Positions 970-30,019 of a stretch of 42,279 nucleotides of DNA are shown here, piece by piece. Made by a program: the position numbers and the translations under genes. Each line of letters starts with the position of its first letter. The stretch's first letter is position 1. This stretch comes from Longicatena sp. (GTDB taxonomy: Bacteria; Bacillota_I; Bacilli_A; Erysipelotrichales; Erysipelotrichaceae), in assembly GCA_020025055.1 (NCBI GenBank), contig JAHHST010000001.1, positions 1-42,279 of the forward strand, given 5' to 3'. A model generated the notes under the pieces. The model saw only the letters and a list, made by a program, of their open reading frames with translations, made no database searches and was not told where the DNA came from.

Positions 970-1125
970 GGCATTCTTTTGCCTGTTTATTATCTGATTC
1001 ATCTAAATCATGAATAAACATTAAATATGTAATTTGTTCAATAACTTCTAATGGGTTTGTTAAACCTCCTGTAGAAACGTATTCCACAATGCATCAATTT
1101 TGTTCTTTAATTCTCCTGTTATCAT
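970..1125 (-). pseudogene. hsdM: 5' stub of a type I R-M methyltransferase (hsdM-like), frameshifted and truncated
   Basis: The ATG at 1125-1123 overlaps the fic stop (TAATG). Frame 0 reads MITGELKNKIDALWNTF and then stops. Shifting frame at about 1075-1077 gives STGGLTNPLEVIEQITYLMFIHDLDESDNKQAKE. Joined, this matches the conserved HsdM N-terminal pattern as I remember it (MxTGELKxKID.LW..FWSGGxxNPLEVIEQITYLxFIxxLD). The shifted frame ends at a stop at 929-931 after unrelated residues. Confidence 0.55.
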
Positions 1126-2189
1126 TATTCTTCCTCCCAATTCCAAACATATGATGTATAACGGCCTCCGCCTTGTTTAATAATTTTATTTTCATCCAAC
1201 AATTGTGCTAATGTGCGCTGTATTGTTGTTTGACTAATATCCGGACACATCTTAATTAAATCAGCTTTGGTAATTTTTCCTATATGTTCTTTAATAATTA
1301 TTTTAATTCTATCTGGTTTTGATGTAGCTATTTTTGAAATGACCATGACACGTGATTCAAACTCACGATATGCCGCAACAATACTTCCTAAATAATACTT
1401 CACAAATGGCTCATATGTATTCTTATTATCATGCCACCCAATTGAGCAATTGTATAGCATTTCGTAATACGTTTCTTTACTTTTTTCAATATTTTTTTCA
1501 ACACTTATATATTTCCCAACAATATAGTCTGATTGATATAACATCAACAATGTTAATAATCGGCTCATTCTTCCATTCCCATCATTAAATGGGTGAATAC
1601 ATAGAAAGTCTAGTATAAACATTGGAATTAATAATAAAGGGTCAATTTCCTTGTTTATAGCCTCATTGAATGCATCACATAGATTTTGCATAGCATCTTT
1701 GGTTTCCCATGCAGAAACAGGTTGAAATCTCACATGCTGTACACCATCAGAATCTTCTTCAGCAATGATATTATCCGATGTTTTATATGTTCCTCCTAAA
1801 CTTGTTCCAGAATGTTTATATAAATCACGATGTAATTGTAAAATCATAGATGGTTTAATTGGAATGTATTCATAATTTTCATGAATAATATTCAACACAT
1901 CTCGATATCCTGCAATCTCTTCTTCATTACGTGTTTTAGGCATTGTTTTATCCATTACGATTTTTTTCAATCTTTGATCTGAAGTATAAATACCTTCAAT
2001 CTTATTTGATGCTTCTGTACTTTGAATTTTAGCAATTTCTAATAATTTATTTAACTTATCAGCATTTTCCTCAATAAATAAATTTTGTTCCCCTTTAAAT
2101 TCATGAATCTTAGTTAATAATGATATGATTTCTGGCGTAAATAATTTTTTATAACTTTCTAAATAACTAAAATTCCTCATTTTTATCAC
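1125..2189 (-). CDS. fic: Fic family protein (AMPylase-type), class II, with C-terminal winged-HTH
   Basis: Canonical Fic motif HPFNDGNGRMSRLL, i.e. HxFx(D/E)GNGRxxR. N-terminal inhibitory-helix motif SNKIEG, i.e. (S/T)xxxE(G/N). The C-terminal ~70 aa look like a wHTH (ISQTTIQRTLAQLLDENKIIKQGGGRYTSY). Confidence 0.9.
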   Translation of the reverse strand: MIKMRNFSYLESYKKLFTPEIISLLTKIHEFKGEQNLFIEENADKLNKLLEIAKIQSTEASNKIEGIYTSDQRLKKIVMDKTMPKTRNEEEIAGYRDVLNIIHENYEYIPIKPSMILQLHRDLYKHSGTSLGGTYKTSDNIIAEEDSDGVQHVRFQPVSAWETKDAMQNLCDAFNEAINKEIDPLLLIPMFILDFLCIHPFNDGNGRMSRLLTLLMLYQSDYIVGKYISVEKNIEKSKETYYEMLYNCSIGWHDNKNTYEPFVKYYLGSIVAAYREFESRVMVISKIATSKPDRIKIIIKEHIGKITKADLIKMCPDISQTTIQRTLAQLLDENKIIKQGGGRYTSYVWNWEEE

Positions 2190-3990: not shown

Positions 3991-4229
3991 AAAAAAGACT
4001 CCATCCTCATAGGGACGAGAGTCTCATCGTGGTACCACCCTAATTCATCAGTCGGTTTCCCTAACTGACCTTAGTGACTATAAAAGTCTATCTTTAACGC
4101 AGATTACACGTTCTTTCGAAATGCTCCAAGTCTTTATTTCAAAATATGTTCCACTATCCTGTTCTCATCACCAAGGACTCTCTTTGAGTTTTCCAAATTT
4201 CTACTCTCTCTTCAACGCAAATATTTACG
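3991..4229 (-). promoter_or_regulatory. T-box riboswitch leader, lysine (AAG) specifier, controlling lysS
   Basis: Minus strand carries the conserved T-box sequence AATTAGGGTGGTACCACG (4028-4045). It is followed by the terminator GAGACTCTCGTCCCTATGAGGATGGAGTC + T8 (3991-4027). The stem I 5' part is TTGCGTTGAAGAGAGAGTAG, with distal GGTGATGAG. The specifier-loop context GAAATA-AAG-A-CTTGGAGCA aligns with B. subtilis glyQS GAA-GGC-A-CUUCGAGCA, which places the codon AAG at 4132-4134. Confidence 0.85.
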
Positions 4230-4235
4230 TGTATG

Positions 4236-4264
4236 ATTATATAAAGATTACCTATATTTGTCAA
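4236..4264 (-). promoter_or_regulatory. sigmaA promoter of the lysS T-box leader
   Basis: Minus strand: TTGACA (4259-4264) - 17 nt - TATAAT (4236-4241). Both hexamers are consensus. Confidence 0.7.
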
Positions 4265-4317: not shown

Positions 4318-4686
4318 TTATTGATGGTCTCCACAATCATGTGCATGTTCATGTTCATGACAAATAGATCCTGTTGATTTTAAATCTCCACGAAGCCAAG
4401 CATCTACTGCTGCACGAGCATCTCCTCTTGCACCTAATACGACTTCTACATTTCTTTCATTGAAGATATCAACAGCACCTCCACCCATACCTCCAGCAAT
4501 TACAACTTCAGCTCCATTGTCTGCTAAAAAGTTTGGCAAGAATCCTGGACGATGTCCTGGATTTGGTACACTTTCTTCTTTTACAATTGTTCCATTTTCT
4601 ACATCAAAGAAAATAAAGTTTTCGCAATGTCCAAAATGCATTGCAACATCTGTTCCCATAGCTGGTATAGCAATTCTCATAATCAT
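4318..4686 (-). CDS. NifX/NifB-C-terminal-type (FeMo-cofactor-binding fold) protein with His/Cys-rich tail
   Basis: MRIAIPA...HFGHCENFIFFDVENG...VVIAGGMGGGA matches the small dinitrogenase iron-molybdenum cofactor domain family. The C-terminus is CHEHEHAHDCGDHQ. The start may be the third codon (ATG at 4680), which has better RBS spacing. Confidence 0.85.
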   Translation of the reverse strand: MIMRIAIPAMGTDVAMHFGHCENFIFFDVENGTIVKEESVPNPGHRPGFLPNFLADNGAEVVIAGGMGGGAVDIFNERNVEVVLGARGDARAAVDAWLRGDLKSTGSICHEHEHAHDCGDHQ

Positions 4687-4707
4687 ATTCTCCTTTTTCT
4701 TATATAT

Positions 4708-5499
4708 TTATAATTCTACAATACTTCCTGTAGAAATATAATCTAACTGATCTTTCATTCTTTCTTTTAAGAATTGATACTGTTCTACTCCTGTACAATG
4801 TCCAGTATAGTATTTTGTTGGATACTTCATAAGTTCTTCACAAGCATCCTCTAATACTTTACAATCTTCTTGTTTTTGAAAATCTAACTTTTTAAAATGG
4901 AACCCTCCAACTAACACCTCTGGAGTTAACCAATTCATAATATTTAAAATACCTTTATGTGAACATCCACTAAAGACTACTGTTATATCTTCTTTTACAA
5001 TCAAATATTGTTCATGAAAAAAGTTATCTGGTAACAATGTAGCATCTACCTTTCTATTTAATCCATAACACTCTACTGGGTATTTACATTCTTTTTTATT
5101 ACATGTAACTAATGTTAATTCTTCATCAATATTATATTCATCATCTATATATACAAAACGTTTTTCATTCTTTAAATCTTGATCTAATCCAATATATTTT
5201 TCACTTCCATTATAATGTGGAATAAATACTTCTTTATTCATATAAATCTTTGCATGATCATTTAATTGTAAAAATGTTTTTAATCCTCCACCATGATCAT
5301 AATGCCCATGAGATAAAATACAAATATCAACATCTTCTAAATGAACTCCCATTGCTTTGGCATTTTTTATAAAAAGATCTGATTGTCCTGTATCAAATAA
5401 TATTTTATGATGCCTTGTTTCTATATATAAACTTAATCCATGTTCAAATCCTAAATTTTGATTCATCGTTGTATTTTCTACTAATGTATATACTTTCAT
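4708..5499 (-). CDS. MBL-fold metallo-hydrolase
   Basis: Has the HxHxDH motif (ILSHGHYDHGGGL) and a downstream GCSHKG / TGHCTG histidine pattern. Its start overlaps the upstream gene's stop in ATGA (5496-5499). Confidence 0.85.
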   Translation of the reverse strand: MKVYTLVENTTMNQNLGFEHGLSLYIETRHHKILFDTGQSDLFIKNAKAMGVHLEDVDICILSHGHYDHGGGLKTFLQLNDHAKIYMNKEVFIPHYNGSEKYIGLDQDLKNEKRFVYIDDEYNIDEELTLVTCNKKECKYPVECYGLNRKVDATLLPDNFFHEQYLIVKEDITVVFSGCSHKGILNIMNWLTPEVLVGGFHFKKLDFQKQEDCKVLEDACEELMKYPTKYYTGHCTGVEQYQFLKERMKDQLDYISTGSIVEL

Positions 5500-6359
5500 A
5501 ATAAAATCTCCATTACTTTTTGATAAACTTTATATAATGCATCTTTGGCAGGACAATCGATTTGGGCAATGCTTTTTCCATTATTCATTGCTTTTGAAGC
5601 CGTCTTGTCATATGGTATTTTTCCTACAAGTGGTATATCTTCTTCTTTACAGAACTCTTCAATCGCTTGTGCATTTTGAATACTACTATTCCATTTATTA
5701 ACACATACTACAAGTTTTACTTGAAGTGTATTCGCAGTCTTTACTAAACGTTTTAAATCACTTAATCCAGAAATCGATGGTTCTGCAACCACAAGTACTA
5801 AATCCACTCCCGTAATAGAAGCAATCACAGGACATCCAATTCCTGGTGAACCATCAATAATCGCAAGTTCTGTATCTTCTTTTGCATGTGCAATCATTTC
5901 TTTTTTTACTTCAGTAACTAGTTTTCCAGAATTTCCTCTGCCCATTTTTAACTTTGCCGTAGAAAATACTTTTTGTCCTAGATAAAGTTGTTGAAGCCCT
6001 GCTACATCTTGTTTTAAAGTGATTGCTTTTTGTGGACATATATATTCACATACTCCACAACCCTCACATGCATACTCATCAATTTTATATACATGATTTT
6101 CCCGGGTAATAGCATCAAAGCGACAATGATTTGCACAAGCTCCACAAGCAATACATTGTTCTGAATTAATATATGCTTTTTCAGATCCTAAAAAATCTTT
6201 TTTTATTGGTTCTTCATCCATGGAAGATACAATATGAAGATTCGGTGCATCGACATCACAATCTGCCATTGCTTTTGCATTCGCAAAATGAATAAAAGCT
6301 GCGGCAGTTGTTGTTTTTCCTGTTCCACCTTTACCACTTAAAATCAATAACTTTTTCAT
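5496..6359 (-). CDS. MinD/ParA-superfamily P-loop ATPase with inserted 2x[4Fe-4S] ferredoxin domain (paralog 2)
   Basis: Deviant Walker A LSGKGGTGKTT. The insert is CIACGACANHC ... CEGCGVCEYICP (CxxCxxCxxxC twice). ATGA overlap with the upstream paralog at 6356-6359. Confidence 0.9.
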   Translation of the reverse strand: MKKLLILSGKGGTGKTTTAAAFIHFANAKAMADCDVDAPNLHIVSSMDEEPIKKDFLGSEKAYINSEQCIACGACANHCRFDAITRENHVYKIDEYACEGCGVCEYICPQKAITLKQDVAGLQQLYLGQKVFSTAKLKMGRGNSGKLVTEVKKEMIAHAKEDTELAIIDGSPGIGCPVIASITGVDLVLVVAEPSISGLSDLKRLVKTANTLQVKLVVCVNKWNSSIQNAQAIEEFCKEEDIPLVGKIPYDKTASKAMNNGKSIAQIDCPAKDALYKVYQKVMEILL

Positions 6360-7192
6360 TTTACTGCACCTTCAATCTTTTCTAATAAATCGAAAAATAA
6401 TGCATGTACATGATCATTACACTCACATACAATCTTCCCTTGTGCAGCTAAACTAGCCATTGTTTTATCATATGGAATACGCGCTAAAATAGGAATTTTA
6501 TGTTCTTTACAAAAATCTTCTAGTGGTTGATATAGAATTTCTTGTTTGTTGATGACAACTCCCATTTTTTTATCTAATAGCGATGCCAATTCATATACCA
6601 TACAAAAATTATGGAATCCAAATGCTGTTGGCTCTGCGACCAAAACACAGTAATCTGCATCTGTAATGGTTTCCATGACACTACATGCACTTCCTGGAGG
6701 ACAATCATAAACAACCAATCCATCGTGTTTACTTCCTAATTTTTGTACTTCTTTAATCACCGGAATTCCACTCGATTCTCCGGTATTTAAAATACCTGTA
6801 ATTACATGTACGTCTTGATGCCAGCCATCTTCAATAACTCCAACTGGATGTTTGGTTTCGTGTATAGCGTCGTTTGGACATACAAGCATGCATCCACCGC
6901 ATGAATGACAAACTTCTTTAAAAATTAAAGGTCGATTAACTAAATAAATCAATGCATTGAAATGACAAAAATCAACGCATTTGCGACATCCATCGCATTT
7001 TTTTACATCGAATTCTGGCATCATTCTATTTACGGTTATAGTTGTTATATTTTCTGGTTTAAAAAATAAATGTCCATTTGGTTCTTCTACATCACAATCA
7101 ATATAAGTTGCATGGTTTGCTACTGCGGCTAAATTTACAGAAACAAAAGTTTTTCCCGCTCCGCCTTTTCCGCTTAATACTGCAAGTTTCAT
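6356..7192 (-). CDS. MinD/ParA-superfamily P-loop ATPase with inserted 2x[4Fe-4S] ferredoxin domain (paralog 1)
   Basis: Deviant Walker A LSGKGGAGKT. The insert is CDGCRKCVDFC ... CHSCGGCMLVCP. ATGA overlap with the upstream NifX-like gene at 7189-7192. Confidence 0.9.
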   Translation of the reverse strand: MKLAVLSGKGGAGKTFVSVNLAAVANHATYIDCDVEEPNGHLFFKPENITTITVNRMMPEFDVKKCDGCRKCVDFCHFNALIYLVNRPLIFKEVCHSCGGCMLVCPNDAIHETKHPVGVIEDGWHQDVHVITGILNTGESSGIPVIKEVQKLGSKHDGLVVYDCPPGSACSVMETITDADYCVLVAEPTAFGFHNFCMVYELASLLDKKMGVVINKQEILYQPLEDFCKEHKIPILARIPYDKTMASLAAQGKIVCECNDHVHALFFDLLEKIEGAVK

Positions 7193-7545
7193 TGTAAACC
7201 ATGGAAGCCTGCATGAAAATGTGTCAACTCTTCCAATTTATTTTCTAAATAAGCTTCGATTTCAACATCTGCCATTTGATGCGTAGACTTATAAATTTTA
7301 ATACCTGCAGCTTTAAATACTTCTGCCGCATTTTCTCCACAACGCACTGTAATTAATACTTCACAGCCGTGATCCACAACGCATTGTGCTGCTTTAATTC
7401 CTGCTCCACCTTGTGCTTCTGCACCAGGATTTTCTACATATTCTGTTTGCTCTGTATCGGTATCGTGAACCATAAAAAATGGAGCACGTCCAAATGAAAC
7501 ACATACGTTTTTTTTATCTTCATCCAACGGAATCATTATTTTCAT
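7189..7545 (-). CDS. NifX/NifB-C-terminal-type (FeMo-cofactor-binding fold) protein
   Basis: 118 aa. MKIMIPLDEDKKNVCVSFGRAPFFMVHD...VLITVRCGENA matches the same small Nitro_FeMo-Co domain family as 4318-4686. Confidence 0.85.
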   Translation of the reverse strand: MKIMIPLDEDKKNVCVSFGRAPFFMVHDTDTEQTEYVENPGAEAQGGAGIKAAQCVVDHGCEVLITVRCGENAAEVFKAAGIKIYKSTHQMADVEIEAYLENKLEELTHFHAGFHGLQ

Positions 7546-7557
7546 ATATTTTTCCTC

Positions 7558-7905
7558 CTACTTTATTCTTGGACATGGATGACACCCTCGTTTATGGCAA
7601 CAAGTTTCTTTCTCATCGCATAATCGATAGTCTCCACCTTCAATTTTTAATTTTTTTCCTTCTACTAACATAAGCGCAATTTTTTTTCGTGCAGAAGTAT
7701 ACATCTGCTGAACGGTTGTTCTTGCTACATTCATATATAAACTACATTCTTCTTGTGAATATCCTTCTTGATCGATTAAGCGAATAGTTTCATATTCATC
7801 TACTGTCAATATGATACAATCTTCATTTGCAACACATTCTTTAGGTGCAAATTCATTATATGATGGCATTTGACAAACTCTTCTACACTTTCTTGGTCGT
7901 GGCAT
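7558..7905 (-). CDS. DUF134 (UPF0251) family predicted DNA-binding protein with Cys-rich C-terminus
   Basis: Hallmark N-terminus MPRPRKCRRV..P....F.P. Sigma-70 region-4-like HTH (LTVDEYETIRLIDQEGYSQEECSLYMNVARTTVQQMYTSARKKI). The C-terminal tail is CDEKETCCHKRGCHPCP. It is the first gene of the operon. Confidence 0.85.
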   Translation of the reverse strand: MPRPRKCRRVCQMPSYNEFAPKECVANEDCIILTVDEYETIRLIDQEGYSQEECSLYMNVARTTVQQMYTSARKKIALMLVEGKKLKIEGGDYRLCDEKETCCHKRGCHPCPRIK

Positions 7906-7925
7906 ATATTCACCTCCATAGTTTT

Positions 7926-7976
7926 TGACATATGTTATTTACAATTTCATTATACTCTGTTAATGACATATGTCAA
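7926..7976 (-). promoter_or_regulatory. sigmaA promoter of the DUF134 operon flanked by two copies of a 12-bp palindrome
   Basis: Minus strand: TTGACA (7971-7976) - 16 nt - TATAAT (7949-7954). The perfect palindrome TGACATATGTCA (7964-7975) overlaps the -35. A second copy, TGACATATGTTA (7926-7937, one mismatch), lies just downstream of the predicted start site. Confidence 0.55.
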
Positions 7977-27295: not shown

Positions 27296-30019
27296 TTATT
27301 TGAAGTAATTTAATATAAATAGCGCTTCTATATCTGAAATTTCGACACTATATCTTTCACTTACGCCACTAAAAGCATTTTTTACGTATTGAATGCGTTC
27401 CTTTTCATTTTTCACTTGAGTTTCCATTCCTTTTGCCTCATCAATTGCTTGTTTCAAAATCAATCGTTCAATTAAACAACTAATATGTATATATAACCCT
27501 ACCTTTTTCGTAGCATCTAGTTCTTCTTTTAAATCATTTTCAAGATATGTGACAATTTCTTCAACATCATTAATAATTTTTTCTCCATTCAGAATAGTTA
27601 AATGATTTACAATATTTGATAAAGTAAAATTTTTAGTAATATTTTTTCTAAATTCAACTAGCTCTTCATTATTTAAATATTCTTTCATAATTTGTTCTAT
27701 AATCTCAAATTCATCATTCATCATGACACTTTCTATTGCCATGAAAGGAATATTCTCTATTTTTGGATCTAATGTACCAATAATCAAATCGACATCATAC
27801 CTATTAAACACAAGGTCACTTGTTCCATTTTCTACCAATTCTTTATAGTTATATGGTATGATAACCAGATCAATTTTTCTTGGCAATGACATAATCAACA
27901 ATTCACATATTTTTTGTGCTGCACCAAAACCTGTAGCACAAATTGATAAAATTGCCTTTTGTTTTTTTCTACTTTTCACAAAATGAGTTGAAATTTTATA
28001 TTTCTCATTAATATGTTCTAATACTTCTTCAATACATTTTCCTTGTAATATATCGTTTCCAACGGATAACGCCATTCCTGTTGATACATTATTTATGATT
28101 CCAATATTATAATCAAATACAGGCTTTATTTTTTTATAAATTGCTTCTAAACTACCCATGTCTACTAAAAAAATCAACTCTTTGATTGTACTTTTTCTCT
28201 TAATATATTCTTCAACTAATTTAGCTATTTTATCTATTGAAATATTAATTTCCATATCGATACCATCAAATATATATTGCCCTAACATCCTATTCACTGT
28301 TTCTGCAATACTGCTCGCTGTTGAATACCCATGGCATAGTATAACCCCGCCATAAGAACTAGGACCATCATCTTGATACTTTTCAAAAGAAACTGTTATC
28401 ATAAATAATAACAAATTATCTACTTCTATATCCAAATTTATTTTTATATTATCTATAATTTCTGTTGCTATATTGAATGCACGAGGTAGATATTCCTGCA
28501 ATTCATTCATCATTTTATCAATAATTTCTTTATTCTCACTAGTCCAAATATTTGTATCTGTATAACTTTTAGAGTATTCCAACAATATTTTTGAATAAAT
28601 TTTAATTTCATTATTAGGAATTGCTAAAGAATATTTATTCATCACAATAGAAAATATTTTATCTAATAATTTTAATAAATACTCTTCGTTTGTATTGTTT
28701 AAATAGCTACCATGAAACATAACGTAGTCTATATAATGTTCAATAATTAAACTAACTTTATTCTTATATGTATCAAATGAATCATTCATTTTTTCATATT
28801 GAATATAAGTGTTCAATATTTGCTGATACAATTTTAGAATAAATGAAGAATCATTTAAGCTACTTTTTAATGTGGAAATTGGAATCAAGTTTTCTTCTGT
28901 ATTGTGAACAGTAGACTTAAGTTGCATCGTTTTCAAGGTTGAAAAAATATATTCAGGCAAATCCTTCACCTTTACTTTTAATTTTTTAGACTCTTTATTC
29001 AATAAAAATGAATTTGCACAAGCTCCTTTAATTGCATTTTTTAATGTACCTACATTTCCTATAAATTCAAAATCCATCAATGTTTGATAGGCCAAATTAC
29101 TTATCAATATTTCTTTATTTAAACGTTTACTTTCTTTATGAAACATTTCATATATTAATTCTCTTTTTTCTATTAATGGTCTTTCTTTTAATGATGGTAC
29201 AGTAATAATAATTGGAATTCTTCGTAATAAAGTTTTTAATAATGCATTTTGTGGATTTTCAGTAGTAGCAAAAACAAGTCTACATTTCGAAGTATACCAA
29301 TTATCATTATCCCCTACTTTATGGTACATTTGTTTATCCATAAAGAAAAATAATTTTTCTTGGCATTCCGCTTTTAAACAATGCACTTCATCAAGAAACA
29401 AAATTCCTCCATCTGCCAATGCGATTAAACCTTCGTTATCTTCATCAGCACCAGTATATGCACCTTTGACATTCCCAAATAAATTTGTTGTCAGTAATTC
29501 TGGATTATTTGCATATTCAGAACAATTTACCGCAATAAATCTTTTATCTTTATCTATTATTTTTTGATTTAATGCATAATCATACATCATAGAAGCAATC
29601 ATACTTTTTCCTGTTCCTGTTGGACCTTGAATAAGAATTGGCAATCCACCTGGATATGTAACTGCAGCTTTACAATGATCAACAACACTCTTTAATGAGT
29701 TGTTATATCCAATTAAATTTTCAAAATCCATTTTGTCTTCACGAAAACAATTGATAAAATCATCAAATGATTCATAGACATCTTGATCACTCTTTCGAAT
29801 CATTTTTTCTTCAATGACATTTCGAGCAAAAAAATAAACAGGTCTTGTATTTATTTTAATAGCTTCCCCTTGTTTTACTTTTTCATTTAAATACTGTGAA
29901 ACTGTATTTCTACCTATATTTAAAGATAACGCAATATCTGCAGCTGTAAAAACTTTATTTTCTTCTATCACATTTTCTTTTGTTCGATTCATTAATTCTA
30001 AAAATACTTTTTCCTTCAT
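27296..30019 (-). CDS. levR: sigma-54-dependent PRD-containing transcriptional activator, LevR/ManR type
   Basis: 907 aa. N-terminal wHTH; AAA+ core with Walker A GPTGTGKS and the sigma-54 contact loop GAYTGA (a GAFTGA variant); PRD regions; EIIA(Man)-like segment VILCHGYSTASSIAE; EIIB(Gat)-like segment ICATGFGAAQ. Confidence 0.92.
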   Translation of the reverse strand: MKEKVFLELMNRTKENVIEENKVFTAADIALSLNIGRNTVSQYLNEKVKQGEAIKINTRPVYFFARNVIEEKMIRKSDQDVYESFDDFINCFREDKMDFENLIGYNNSLKSVVDHCKAAVTYPGGLPILIQGPTGTGKSMIASMMYDYALNQKIIDKDKRFIAVNCSEYANNPELLTTNLFGNVKGAYTGADEDNEGLIALADGGILFLDEVHCLKAECQEKLFFFMDKQMYHKVGDNDNWYTSKCRLVFATTENPQNALLKTLLRRIPIIITVPSLKERPLIEKRELIYEMFHKESKRLNKEILISNLAYQTLMDFEFIGNVGTLKNAIKGACANSFLLNKESKKLKVKVKDLPEYIFSTLKTMQLKSTVHNTEENLIPISTLKSSLNDSSFILKLYQQILNTYIQYEKMNDSFDTYKNKVSLIIEHYIDYVMFHGSYLNNTNEEYLLKLLDKIFSIVMNKYSLAIPNNEIKIYSKILLEYSKSYTDTNIWTSENKEIIDKMMNELQEYLPRAFNIATEIIDNIKINLDIEVDNLLLFMITVSFEKYQDDGPSSYGGVILCHGYSTASSIAETVNRMLGQYIFDGIDMEINISIDKIAKLVEEYIKRKSTIKELIFLVDMGSLEAIYKKIKPVFDYNIGIINNVSTGMALSVGNDILQGKCIEEVLEHINEKYKISTHFVKSRKKQKAILSICATGFGAAQKICELLIMSLPRKIDLVIIPYNYKELVENGTSDLVFNRYDVDLIIGTLDPKIENIPFMAIESVMMNDEFEIIEQIMKEYLNNEELVEFRKNITKNFTLSNIVNHLTILNGEKIINDVEEIVTYLENDLKEELDATKKVGLYIHISCLIERLILKQAIDEAKGMETQVKNEKERIQYVKNAFSGVSERYSVEISDIEALFILNYFK

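Follow-up and report, generated by a model that had tools for sequence, protein, structure and literature searches.

What is an operon for that encodes two NifX-fold proteins, a pair of ATPases with ferredoxin inserts, an MBL-fold protein and a small DUF134 protein, and that stands outside any nif context? Such an operon lies in a stretch of 42,279 nt from Longicatena sp. (contig JAHHST010000001.1, assembly GCA_020025055.1), the whole of which is called the window here. An earlier note on this DNA had described a metallocluster-handling module and had held that no biochemical role was assigned to the ensemble. The module is a variant of a known, partly characterised system, that of the orange protein (ORP), and the latter claim does not stand: the core of the operon is homologous to the ORP complex of Desulfovibrio vulgaris Hildenborough (DvH) (PMC6345978, PMC8359166). 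The note had also named an existing definition of the function in the literature as fatal to its reading, and this applies by half only, as the ORP complex is partly characterised and its role there is called "still unclear". A metallocluster-handling role is the best-supported reading, given the ORP homology, the metal sites and the iron and Fe-S neighbours. For the joint reading of orp-type identity, autoregulation by DUF134 and ATPase-driven cluster handling we estimate a probability of about 60%. The operon consists of the following features.

7976-7971 and 7954-7949, minus strand: sigma-A promoter, -35 box TTGACA, 16-nt spacer, -10 box TATAAT, 12/12 match to the consensus
7911 to 7917, minus strand: ribosome-binding site (RBS) GGAGGTG of the first gene
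7558 to 7905, minus strand: DUF134/UPF0251 protein, 115 aa, ATG at 7905
7189 to 7545, minus strand: NifX-A, 118 aa, with an ORP/MTH1175/IssA-type Di-Nase domain (IPR003731)
6356 to 7192, minus strand: ATPase-ferredoxin 1 (ATP1), 278 aa, P-loop of the MinD/ParA class
5496 to 6359, minus strand: ATPase-ferredoxin 2 (ATP2), 287 aa, paralogue of ATP1
4708 to 5499, minus strand: Tflp-like MBL-fold protein, 263 aa
4318 to 4686, minus strand: NifX-B, a NifX-fold protein bearing His and Cys residues
4293 to 4308, minus strand: intrinsic terminator GTGCTTGAAATAGCAC followed by a T-run, ending the operon

Our calls of the six minus-strand open reading frames (ORFs) agree exactly with those of the earlier note, and its consensus sigma-A promoter and its domain assignments, all six of which Pfam supports, are borne out as well. 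All motifs that it quoted are present (MPRPRKCRRV, CCHKRGCHPC, GKGGAGKT, GKGGTGKT, CxxCxxCxxxC twice, HGHYDHGGG and CHEHEHAHDCGDH). Read directly on the minus strand, ATGA stands at each of the three junctions that it had listed (7189-7192, 6356-6359 and 5496-5499), and gaps of 12 nt between DUF134 and NifX-A and of 21 nt between MBL and NifX-B each hold a GGAGG-type RBS. The terminator at 4308-4293, which comes after the last stop codon, had not been noticed. ORFs, ATGA junctions, own RBSs, promoter and terminator mark the six genes as one self-contained transcription unit, in keeping with the note's translationally coupled operon among housekeeping neighbours and outside a nif context. The NifX-B start can be placed in two ways, at the ATG at 4686 (MIMRIAIP, 122 aa) or at the ATG at 4680 (MRIAIP, 120 aa), the latter being the start in public gene calls and aligning better with homologues (PH0822, MRVAIPA). 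The six-gene block was found in five independent assemblies, including the metagenome-assembled genome GCA_003704475.1, and is therefore no assembly artefact.

Kinship of the operon core with the orange-protein system

The orp genes of DvH are arranged as orp5-orp4-orp3 and orp7-orp8-orp9, and the ORP complex comprises Orp3 and Orp4 (paralogues with two [4Fe-4S] motifs each), Orp5 (a small [2Fe-2S] protein), Orp8 (the orange protein) and Orp9 (MrpORP); Orp3, Orp4 and Orp8 are purified together and show Fe-S absorbance, and the complex receives Fe-S from MrpORP (PMC6345978). ORP homologues were retrieved with a fragment of the ORP of Desulfovibrio (Megalodesulfovibrio) gigas, and the comparison covered the loci L086, L088 and L089 and PDB entry 2wfb. 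Locus L088 reads DUF5320, Di-Nase, an OrpR-like enhancer-binding protein (EBP), an Orp7-like protein, ORP, ATPase-ferredoxin, ATPase-ferredoxin and Di-Nase, an order that recurs in the isolate Desulfonatronovibrio hydrogenovorans (L089). ATP1 finds its best match in the first ATPase of L088 (194 bits, against 112 for the paralogue) and ATP2 in the second (207 against 146 bits), and the window and L088 ATPases are reciprocal best matches. NifX-A is 36% identical to the ORP of L088 (E 3e-16), and NifX-B matches the HFGHC-type Di-Nase of that locus. This pairwise collinear orthology, together with the presence of MrpORP at the NifX-B position in other loci, identifies the window at the sequence level as a Firmicute-type orp operon, in which NifX-A, ATP1, ATP2 and NifX-B are orthologous to and collinear with ORP, ATPase, ATPase and Di-Nase of Desulfovibrionales-type loci. 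DUF134 is absent from L086 and L088, and OrpR-like EBPs are present in the delta-proteobacterial loci L088 and L089; the Tflp-like MBL and DUF134 are lineage-variable additions in the window operon.

The two NifX-like proteins, both of which match Pfam Nitro_FeMo-Co (PF02579; E 1.8e-22 for NifX-A and 4.5e-22 for NifX-B), are of different subtypes judging from their residues and relatives. Solved structures matched by NifX-A are MTH1175 (E 2.9e-18), TM1290 (E 1.5e-17) and the D. gigas ORP (2wfb, E 1.3e-9). Across 70 homologues it conserves the motifs FGR and GAG and no Cys or His, which fits non-covalent binding as in the D. gigas ORP, which holds [S2MoS2CuS2MoS2]3- in this way (cited in PMC6345978). 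These alignments assign NifX-A as an orthologue of the orange protein, in the Orp8 position. NifX-B aligns as the free-standing Di-Nase half of MrpORP: it matches the NCBIfam MrpORP model NF041136 at model positions 264-364 (E 1.5e-31, 110 bits), and in the PDB it matches PH0822 (E 9e-17) and TM1816. Its conserved residues H17, C21, H45 and C109 and its His/Cys tail CHEHEHAHDCGDH stand beside the MrpORP pattern, the His/Cys residues corresponding to the "CXHFGHCE" and "CDH" motifs of the MrpORP Di-Nase domain. In four loci (L018, L019, L030 and L032) the same domain and tail terminate an Mrp fusion of about 400 aa; that of Anaerovirgula multivorans (L019), 403 aa long and in the NifX-B position, scores 470.8 bits against the MrpORP equivalog cutoff of 450 and has a Cys/His tail nearly identical to that of the window protein.

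MrpORP's Di-Nase domain binds a [3Fe-4S] cluster (Pardoux 2019, PMC6345978), and IssA, of the MTH1175 clade, serves as an Fe-S store in thioferrate form and reconstitutes ferredoxin (Vaccaro 2017, PMC5524996). MTH1175, the template for the IssA model, is the best solved relative of NifX-A, which has the same globular fold with few or no Cys ligands. In contrast to IssA, NifX-A stops at residue 118 without the cationic Gly/Arg/aromatic C-terminal tail; a separate Gly/Arg-rich DUF5320 gene heads the operon in other loci and is absent from the window. As a separate observation, one Di-Nase of L088 carries a long Gly/Arg-rich, IssA/IssX-like tail, and the Orp7-like protein of that locus has a Cys-rich, zinc-ribbon-like C-terminus (4370-4870, 7275-7868).

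The DvH orp operons depend on sigma-54, OrpR and IHF and are expressed only at low redox potential (PMC3897727, PMC8359166), OrpR being a sigma-54 EBP with a [4Fe-4S] PAS sensor through which orp expression is under redox control (PMC8359166). Both systems have two adjacent MinD-like ATPases with two [4Fe-4S] motifs each, a single-domain Di-Nase of the ORP/Orp8 type without Cys ligands, and a Di-Nase domain with HFGHCE and C..DH motifs (the C-terminal half of Orp9), and both are distributed in anaerobic lineages. They differ in that the window genes form one sigma-A operon and the DvH genes two divergent sigma-54 operons; in that the window has DUF134 and a palindromic operator instead of OrpR and IHF, with no adjacent EBP; in that it has no Mrp/NBP35 P-loop domain (110 bits against the MrpORP cutoff of 450); and in its extra Tflp-like MBL. 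No equivalent of Orp5 or Orp7 was identified in the comparison with the ORP-bearing relatives L086, L088 and L089. With MrpORP itself, NifX-B shares the HFGHCE start and the Cys/His tail, and a full MrpORP takes the same position in several Clostridia, but NifX-B is the Di-Nase alone and does not have the CXXC-bearing P-loop domain by which MrpORP transfers Fe-S in vitro. Orp3, Orp4 and Orp8 of DvH form a physical complex, and the parallels that can be read in the window are limited to ATGA coupling and invariant gene order.

We then asked how widely these genes travel together, a neighbourhood survey that had also been proposed in the earlier note. Species representatives of GTDB were scanned with motifs common to both ATPase paralogues as seeds, which yielded at least 485 confirmed genomes, and ATPase homologues at E <= 1e-5 number at least 7,999. 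All locus counts given here refer to the 80 species-level loci that were kept, 41 of them with ample flanking sequence, in which genes were counted with family-specific hidden Markov models (HMMs) within 5 kb of ATP2.

ATP1: 77/80 loci; 41/41 with ample flank
NifX-A: 68/80 loci; 37/41 with ample flank
NifX-B: 58/80 loci; 33/41 with ample flank
DUF134: 41/80 loci; 23/41 with ample flank
Mrp-like ATPase: 35/80 loci; 22/41 with ample flank
MBL: 19/80 loci; 13/41 with ample flank

The genes thus co-occur, all six families being found together in seven loci. Bacterial loci belong to Clostridia, Erysipelotrichaceae, Veillonella, Synergistaceae, Sphaerochaeta, Izemoplasmatales, Anaerolineae, Desulfobulbus and Ignavibacteria, and archaeal ones include Bathyarchaeia, Methanothrix, Methanocellaceae, Thorarchaeota and Altiarchaeota; in both domains the module is widespread, and the lineages named are anaerobic. 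Genes that recur beside it are NifU/IscU (10 loci), a haem/Fe-type ABC ATPase (8 loci), Fur, DtxR, FeoB and OrpR-like EBPs.

The Pfam name Nitro_FeMo-Co, carried by both small proteins, suggests a quite different origin, as a remnant or accessory of the maturation of FeMo-co, nitrogenase's iron-molybdenum cofactor, and the nitrogenase machinery does share with the window a deviant-Walker-A ATPase with Fe-S clusters, dimeric there and predicted to be so here, as well as small NifX-fold carriers. We give this origin hardly any credence. The window proteins have no NifX, NafY or NifB match in NCBIfam, where MrpORP alone is matched, the ATPases are nearer to MinD and CooC, and NifH lacks the ferredoxin inserts. 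Neither nifHDK nor nifEN nor nifB is among the recurrent neighbours of the 80 loci, and the annotated window ORFs are housekeeping genes, no explicit search for these nif genes having been made in the window. With neither a nif context among the annotated window ORFs and recurrent neighbours nor a Nif family match, the nitrogenase-related reading was rejected.

DUF134 and its predicted palindromic operator

If the core is of the orp type and no OrpR adjoins it, what regulates the operon? The DUF134 match (PF02001) is firm (E 1.5e-22, 80.4 bits against a gathering threshold of 27), and the protein also matches Sigma70_r4_2 (E 3e-5). It is made up of a basic N-terminal arm (MPRPRKCRRVC), a helix-turn-helix (HTH) resembling sigma-70 region 4, and a Cys-rich C-terminus (CCHKRGCHPC). 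The core of its AlphaFold2 (AF2) model (residues 30-89, with a predicted local distance difference test score, pLDDT, above 90) is predicted to form a strand, three helices and a strand. Top Foldseek matches are sigma region 4 or -35-binding domains and the DeoR DNA-binding domain, at a root-mean-square deviation of 0.6-0.9 A, with E-values that are weak because the domain is small; a PDB sequence search found no DUF134 structure (best E 0.15). As in sigma-70 region 4, the HTH is of the -35-binding type, and the half-site of the operator described below resembles TTGACA, but DUF134 is free-standing and not part of a sigma factor. Across 40 homologues, conservation of C7, C11, C54, C96, C103 and C108 is complete or reaches at least 90%. 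The family forms at least 5,700 homologue clusters, and 29 of the top 150 cluster representatives (50% identity) are 220-307 aa long. Fusions of DUF134 to an ORP-like NifX domain occur in 4 genome loci, in 23 of 80 metagenome loci and in 10/10 of the long representatives tested. In the literature searched, DUF134, UPF0251 and PF02001 have three incidental mentions and nothing functional, and the COG number likewise leads to nothing functional.

Two copies of a palindrome, against 0.26 expected in the window, flank the -10 box of the operon.

7964 to 7975: operator site 1, a perfect 12-bp palindrome, TGACATATGTCA, overlapping the -35 box
7926 to 7937: operator site 2, TAACATATGTCA, a copy with a single mismatch, 38 bp away from site 1 and placed after the -10 box but before the RBS

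Operator statistics were taken over the 80 genome loci (1.10 Mb), to which 80 DUF134-anchored metagenome loci were added, 160 in all. The exact 10-mer GACATATGTC occurs 27 times in the 1.10 Mb, and 26 of the 27 sites lie upstream of the operon's first gene. Twelve stand no more than 150 nt upstream of the start of DUF134 (enriched 117-fold), and 14 of the remaining 15 are 43-440 nt upstream of DUF134 or NifX-A, the distant ones immediately preceding a DUF5320 gene that heads the operon. The promoter architecture of the window, in which site 1 takes in the -35 box, a -10 box like TATAAT follows and site 2 precedes the RBS, is conserved in 19 other loci. Spacing of the pair across loci is 34-41 bp (mode 38-40), and the paired pattern can be written as TGACATATGYCA-N22-29-TGRCATATGTCA. 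Relaxed sites outnumber those in shuffled sequence by 72 to 12 in the genome loci and by 116 to 5 in the metagenome loci, with 46 pairs. Chance was rejected as the origin of the operator on the window expectation, the placement of GACATATGTC and these shuffle counts.

The operator goes with the DUF134 gene. It was present in 17 and absent from 19 loci with a cis DUF134 gene, against 2 and 23 loci without one (Fisher p 0.0016). Among the metagenome loci it lies within 500 nt upstream of 52 of the 66 evaluable DUF134 genes, and it accompanies DUF134 even where no ATPases follow. Sites with at most one mismatch that are not upstream of a module gene number only 5 in 1.64 Mb; two of these turned out to belong to DUF134 fusions that had been missed, and a thioredoxin gene follows two others. 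In the DUF134 loci without the site, mostly from archaea or other phyla, variants that keep the CATATG core occur (GGACATATGTCC, GAGCATATGCTC, GTGCATATGCAC). With one palindrome over the -35 box and the second placed between the -10 box and the RBS, DUF134 would repress its own promoter; we infer from the sequences that it is an autoregulatory repressor, which may sense through its Cys site, its NifX domain or both. The earlier note's notion of a dedicated Cys-rich regulator is strengthened by the operator, the sigma-4-like fold and the NifX fusions. DUF134 would resemble OrpR as a dedicated, probably Fe-S- or Cys-based regulator that acts on an orp-type operon through a palindrome, but it is unrelated in sequence, and it is a predicted repressor at a sigma-A promoter where OrpR is a sigma-54 activator.

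The palindrome could instead be bound by a regulator encoded elsewhere, for example of the Crp/Fnr family, with DUF134 acting as an Fe-S protein or as a sigma- or anti-sigma-like factor. It fits a 5-4-5 site of Crp/Fnr style, the two operator-bearing loci without a cis DUF134 gene favour another binder, and a Crp/Fnr-like gene of about 220 aa does lie near DUF134, mostly divergently, in a sub-lineage (L103, L111, L120, L121, L122, L125, L129, L146, L149, L154, L025 and L040), its product being another candidate to bind the palindrome there. These amount to only 2 of the 80 genome and 10 of the 80 metagenome loci (12/160), however, and to 1 of the 27 paired-operator loci that have enough upstream sequence. 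Moreover, the motif conserves its centre, CATATG, and varies in its flanks (GGCATATGCC, AGCATATGCT, GTGCATATGCAC), whereas Crp/Fnr sites do the reverse; the operator stays with DUF134 regardless of the downstream genes; and the DUF134 fold is that of a -35-type DNA-binding domain, in agreement with a -35-like half-site. A binder other than DUF134 is thus an unlikely explanation, and a Crp/Fnr-like protein, tested as the general operator binder, was judged unlikely on the count of 1/27 and the conserved motif centre.

Beside these results we observed the operator-like sequence TTACATATGTCA immediately upstream of the thioredoxin gene (WCGPC) in L121 (position 1693) and L122 (position 4463); this gene may belong to the same regulon.

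Paired ATPases, metal sites and the predicted function

In each of the two ATPases Pfam finds CbiA and two Fer4 motifs, and at 32% identity they are paralogues. Each has a deviant Walker A with the signature lysine (GKGGAGKT, GKGGTGKT) and CxxCxxCxxxC twice, and in both proteins conservation of the eight ferredoxin cysteines, without exception, is 99-100%. Three further cysteines are conserved in each protein, C33, C170 and C228 in ATP1 and C34, C176 (in switch II) and C237 in ATP2. ATP1 is adjacent to and upstream of ATP2 in 77/80 loci, in an invariant order and with a modal overlap of 4 nt, which fits the heterodimer that the earlier note's pairing implied. The deviant Walker A, the invariant pairing and order, and the co-purification of the DvH homologues suggest that ATP1 and ATP2, an ancient paralogue pair, form an ATP-dependent heterodimer.

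Without the ferredoxin insert, the P-loop part matches archaeal MinD (E 3.5e-11), CooC (E 9e-8) and, weakly, NifH (E 0.0066). The AF2 model of ATP2 is confident (pLDDT 93), and the modelled fold resembles those of MinD, FleN, Soj, HypB, NifH, ApbC and Cfd1; since all of these match the P-loop core, the fold cannot separate the rival functions. PDB sequence and fold searches found no solved structure carrying the ferredoxin insert or the whole ATPase-ferredoxin fusion. ATP1 and ATP2 share the deviant Walker A with the Mrp/NBP35/ApbC Fe-S carriers but lack their conserved CXXC motif for a bridging cluster: there is no ApbC match for either, and the extra cysteines are single. We also noticed that three ATP2 homologues (P0003, P0004 and P0039; 325-400 aa) contain internal duplications of the Walker A, the ferredoxin motif or switch II; these may have arisen in assembly or gene calling, or be genuine tandem duplications.

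The closeness of the P-loop core to MinD, FleN and Soj in sequence and in predicted fold would suit a function in cell division or spatial positioning, in which the MinD-like ATPases act, directly or indirectly, in septum placement or morphology with Fe-S as a redox input. This is the link that the Desulfovibrio authors put forward, as a hypothesis and with the ORP role "still unclear" in their own words (PMC3897727, PMC8359166); OrpR inactivation leads to morphological defects, and MrpORP shows polar localisation (PMC8359166, PMC6345978). Against it, the ATPases score far below the NCBIfam MinD cutoffs (50.8 against 212.9 for minD_bact and 62.9 against 201.75 for minD_arch), and neither minC nor minE is adjacent in the window or among the recurrent neighbours of the 80 loci. 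The genes that constantly accompany the ATPases encode NifX-fold cluster carriers, and those that recur nearby NifU/IscU, Fur, DtxR and FeoB. We consider a role in cell division rather improbable.

The ATPases could also be an ATP-driven low-potential electron donor in the manner of NifH, BchL, CfbC or the "archerases", with the NifX-fold and Tflp-like proteins as redox partners or substrates. The proposed heterodimer would hold four ferredoxin-type clusters, NifH and the Fe protein of methylthio-alkane reductase are among the fold matches of the ATP2 model, and Tflp is a redox protein. Both ATPases have an invariant switch-II Cys at Walker-B Asp+7. We take this to be the register of NifH C132, with "DCDV" presumably comparable to "GCDPK" of NifH, a lead only; a global NifH alignment of ATP1 and ATP2 was discarded as unreliable around the insert, and the Walker-B register was kept. 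Against such a donor, no catalytic partner is conserved (MBL in 19/80 and a radical-SAM protein in 16/80 loci); the sequence match to NifH is weak, and no ligand equivalent to NifH C97 is identifiable. The probability of such a donor seems low to us.

The MBL-fold protein had been called a metallo-hydrolase, a label that is probably wrong. Besides Pfam Lactamase_B (E 1.4e-14) and its HGHYDHGGG, it matches Tflp over the full length (PDB 2p4z, E 2.3e-43) and TM1679 (3h3e, E 8e-23). Tflp is an iron-dependent MBL of oxidoreductase type with an [Fe-S] centre when reduced, and its signature is a Cys at MBL motif 4 and another after the motif-5 His (PMC7785958). The window protein keeps HxHxDH, the Cys at motif 4 (GCSH) and the Cys after the motif-5 His (GHC), and is thus Tflp-like (COG1237). 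In 19 homologues C179, H181 and H201 are conserved at 100% and H234 and C235 at 95%, and H64, H66, D68 and H69 are conserved as well. With the Tflp homology and both diagnostic cysteines kept, the protein is probably a redox Fe or Fe-S protein rather than a hydrolase; its identity as a beta-lactamase or hydrolase was rejected on this signature and on NCBIfam scores of at most 34 bits against cutoffs of 100-700. Tflp of Thermoanaerobacter tengcongensis is known by spectroscopy, and the literature that we consulted on it does not discuss a link to an orp-type operon.

Which metal does the module handle? The Mo-Cu-S cluster that the D. gigas ORP binds non-covalently (cited in PMC6345978), the binding of FeMo-co by the NifX/NafY fold, and a radical-SAM neighbour with weak matches to a W-cofactor maturase and to MoaA (44 bits against a 380-bit cutoff) would fit NifX-fold proteins carrying Mo(W)-S or Mo-Cu-S, with the ATPases driving assembly, detoxification or delivery. 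Yet the Mo/W transport and cofactor genes mod, tup, wtp and moa are not among the recurrent neighbours of the 80 loci, where iron and Fe-S genes stand instead; the MrpORP Di-Nase binds [3Fe-4S], and IssA, of the same clade, binds Fe-S (PMC6345978, PMC5524996). Mo/W-sulfide handling therefore appears to us a poor prospect.

We return to the orp-type module with DUF134 autoregulation and ATPase-driven cluster handling, for which the following mechanism is proposed. A DUF134 dimer would bind the two TGACATATGTCA palindromes and repress its own sigma-A promoter. Its DNA binding would respond to cluster load, Fe-S availability or redox state, as is suggested by the six conserved cysteines and by the frequent fusion to, or adjacency with, NifX, and DUF134 would thereby be the functional counterpart of OrpR, the Fe-S redox sensor of the Desulfovibrio orp operons. 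ATP1 and ATP2 would form an ATP-dependent heterodimer of the NifH/Nbp35/MinD sandwich type whose four ferredoxin clusters deliver low-potential electrons, and the nucleotide cycle would drive the assembly, reduction or hand-over of an inorganic Fe-S or other metal-sulfide species. The cluster would pass between NifX-A, the non-covalent carrier, and NifX-B, the ligand-bearing one, with the Tflp-like protein as an accessory redox partner. The module would be an anaerobe-specific system of cluster storage and trafficking beside ISC and SUF.

Several points weigh against this proposal. ORP biochemistry comes from Desulfovibrio, and the physiological link favoured by its authors is cell division (PMC6345978, PMC8359166); ORP as isolated binds Mo-Cu-S rather than Fe-S (cited in PMC6345978), and the window is without the Mrp P-loop half that feeds Fe-S to the Desulfovibrio complex. 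The heterodimer and any site bridging it are predictions, and the comparison with NifH is a lead from motif register. Binding of DUF134 to the palindrome is likewise predicted from sequence. Nineteen of the 36 loci with a cis DUF134 gene, mostly from archaea and other phyla, are without the exact motif, and two loci carry the motif without a cis DUF134 gene. Twelve base pairs make a short palindrome for an HTH dimer of the conventional kind, and the site can also be read as TTGAC-N4-GTCAA in Crp/Fnr style, with a Crp/Fnr-like gene divergent in a minority of loci.

A bolder version of the proposal is doubtful, though it deserves statement: the module might be a fourth, anaerobe-specific economy of inorganic clusters beside ISC, SUF and NIF, spread over Bacteria and Archaea, and DUF134 a new class of transcription factor. 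A NifH-like, ferredoxin-wired heterodimer would then reductively load and unload Fe-S (thioferrate-like or heterometal-sulfide) on NifX-fold carriers, and DUF134, bound to -35-like palindromes, would set expression by cluster load, its sensor being a Cys-ligated cluster, an ORP-like NifX domain or both.

To our knowledge, some twenty years of work on the orange protein have not revealed what the complex is for. The families of this operon are among the most widespread metalloproteins of unknown function in anaerobes, from gut Clostridia to relatives of methanogens and to sulfate reducers, and assigning the operon to the ORP family links a Desulfovibrio literature that has stood alone to a great many genomes. 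Specialists will find little to surprise them in the operon itself; it is the regulator prediction that makes an old question approachable by experiment, as a predicted DUF134 repressor with a short, highly specific operator would give a handle on the signal (Fe-S load, redox or sulfide) and thence on the function. The Tflp-type MBL and the IscU, Fur, FeoB and DtxR neighbours point to an iron-sulfur economy rather than to Mo/W or cell division. As far as the searchable literature goes, the sigma-A/DUF134 layout of the Firmicute operon, the DUF134 operator and sigma-4-like fold, the fusions of DUF134 to NifX, the recognition of the MBL as Tflp-type and the extra ATPase cysteines are new; the comparative layout may already be described in part in the founding paper on the system, Fievet 2011 (J Bacteriol 193:3207), which lies outside the literature covered.

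Surrounding genes and further observations

The operon sits between dusB and the T-box-controlled lysS, with dusB, hslO, ftsH, hpt and tilS upstream and lysS downstream. Searched with HMMs, the window ORFs (all those of at least 60 aa) yielded neither an additional member of the six families nor an Mrp-type ATPase. Upstream of lysS (3964-2483), in the stretch 4008-4264 of the minus strand, another perfect sigma-A promoter (TTGACA-17-TATAAT, 4264-4236) is succeeded by a T-box leader (RF00230). The leader scores 89.1 bits (E 2.8e-20), slightly below the gathering score of 93, and its terminator is at 4018-4001; Rfam at the gathering threshold gave zero matches in the window, and the T-box emerged only in a targeted E-value search. 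Downstream of lysS, a Fic-domain protein is encoded at 1125-2189 (minus strand). The window also encodes a LevR-like sigma-54 activator (Sigma54_activat, PRD and EIIA-man domains) at 27296-30019 on the minus strand, so that the organism uses sigma-54 regulators; its orp-type operon uses sigma-A nonetheless.

In other loci several small families adjoin the module. A DUF5320 gene (MPRGDGTGPMGxGPxTGRG..., with a C-terminal coiled coil) heads the operon directly downstream of the operator in 15/80 loci, for example L019 (7990), L026 (7914), L028 (7658), L036 (2455) and L013 (864), and is found in L086 and L088 as well; its Gly/Arg/aromatic-rich composition resembles the cationic tail of IssA, and it is absent from the window. 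The radical-SAM protein that adjoins the module in 16/80 loci (L059, 3355-4407; L087, 740-1687) has a C-terminal winged helix, and its best NCBIfam matches (W-cofactor maturase, viperin and MoaA) are all far below cutoff. Homologues of the ARMT1-like DUF89 "damage-control phosphatase" stand beside the module in 10 loci (e.g. L077, 7456-8445), DUF1847 in 5 (L079, 8400-9128) and the "heavy-metal chelation" family DUF364/DUF4213 in 4 (L053, 5977-6672), these three mainly in archaeal and non-Firmicute loci.

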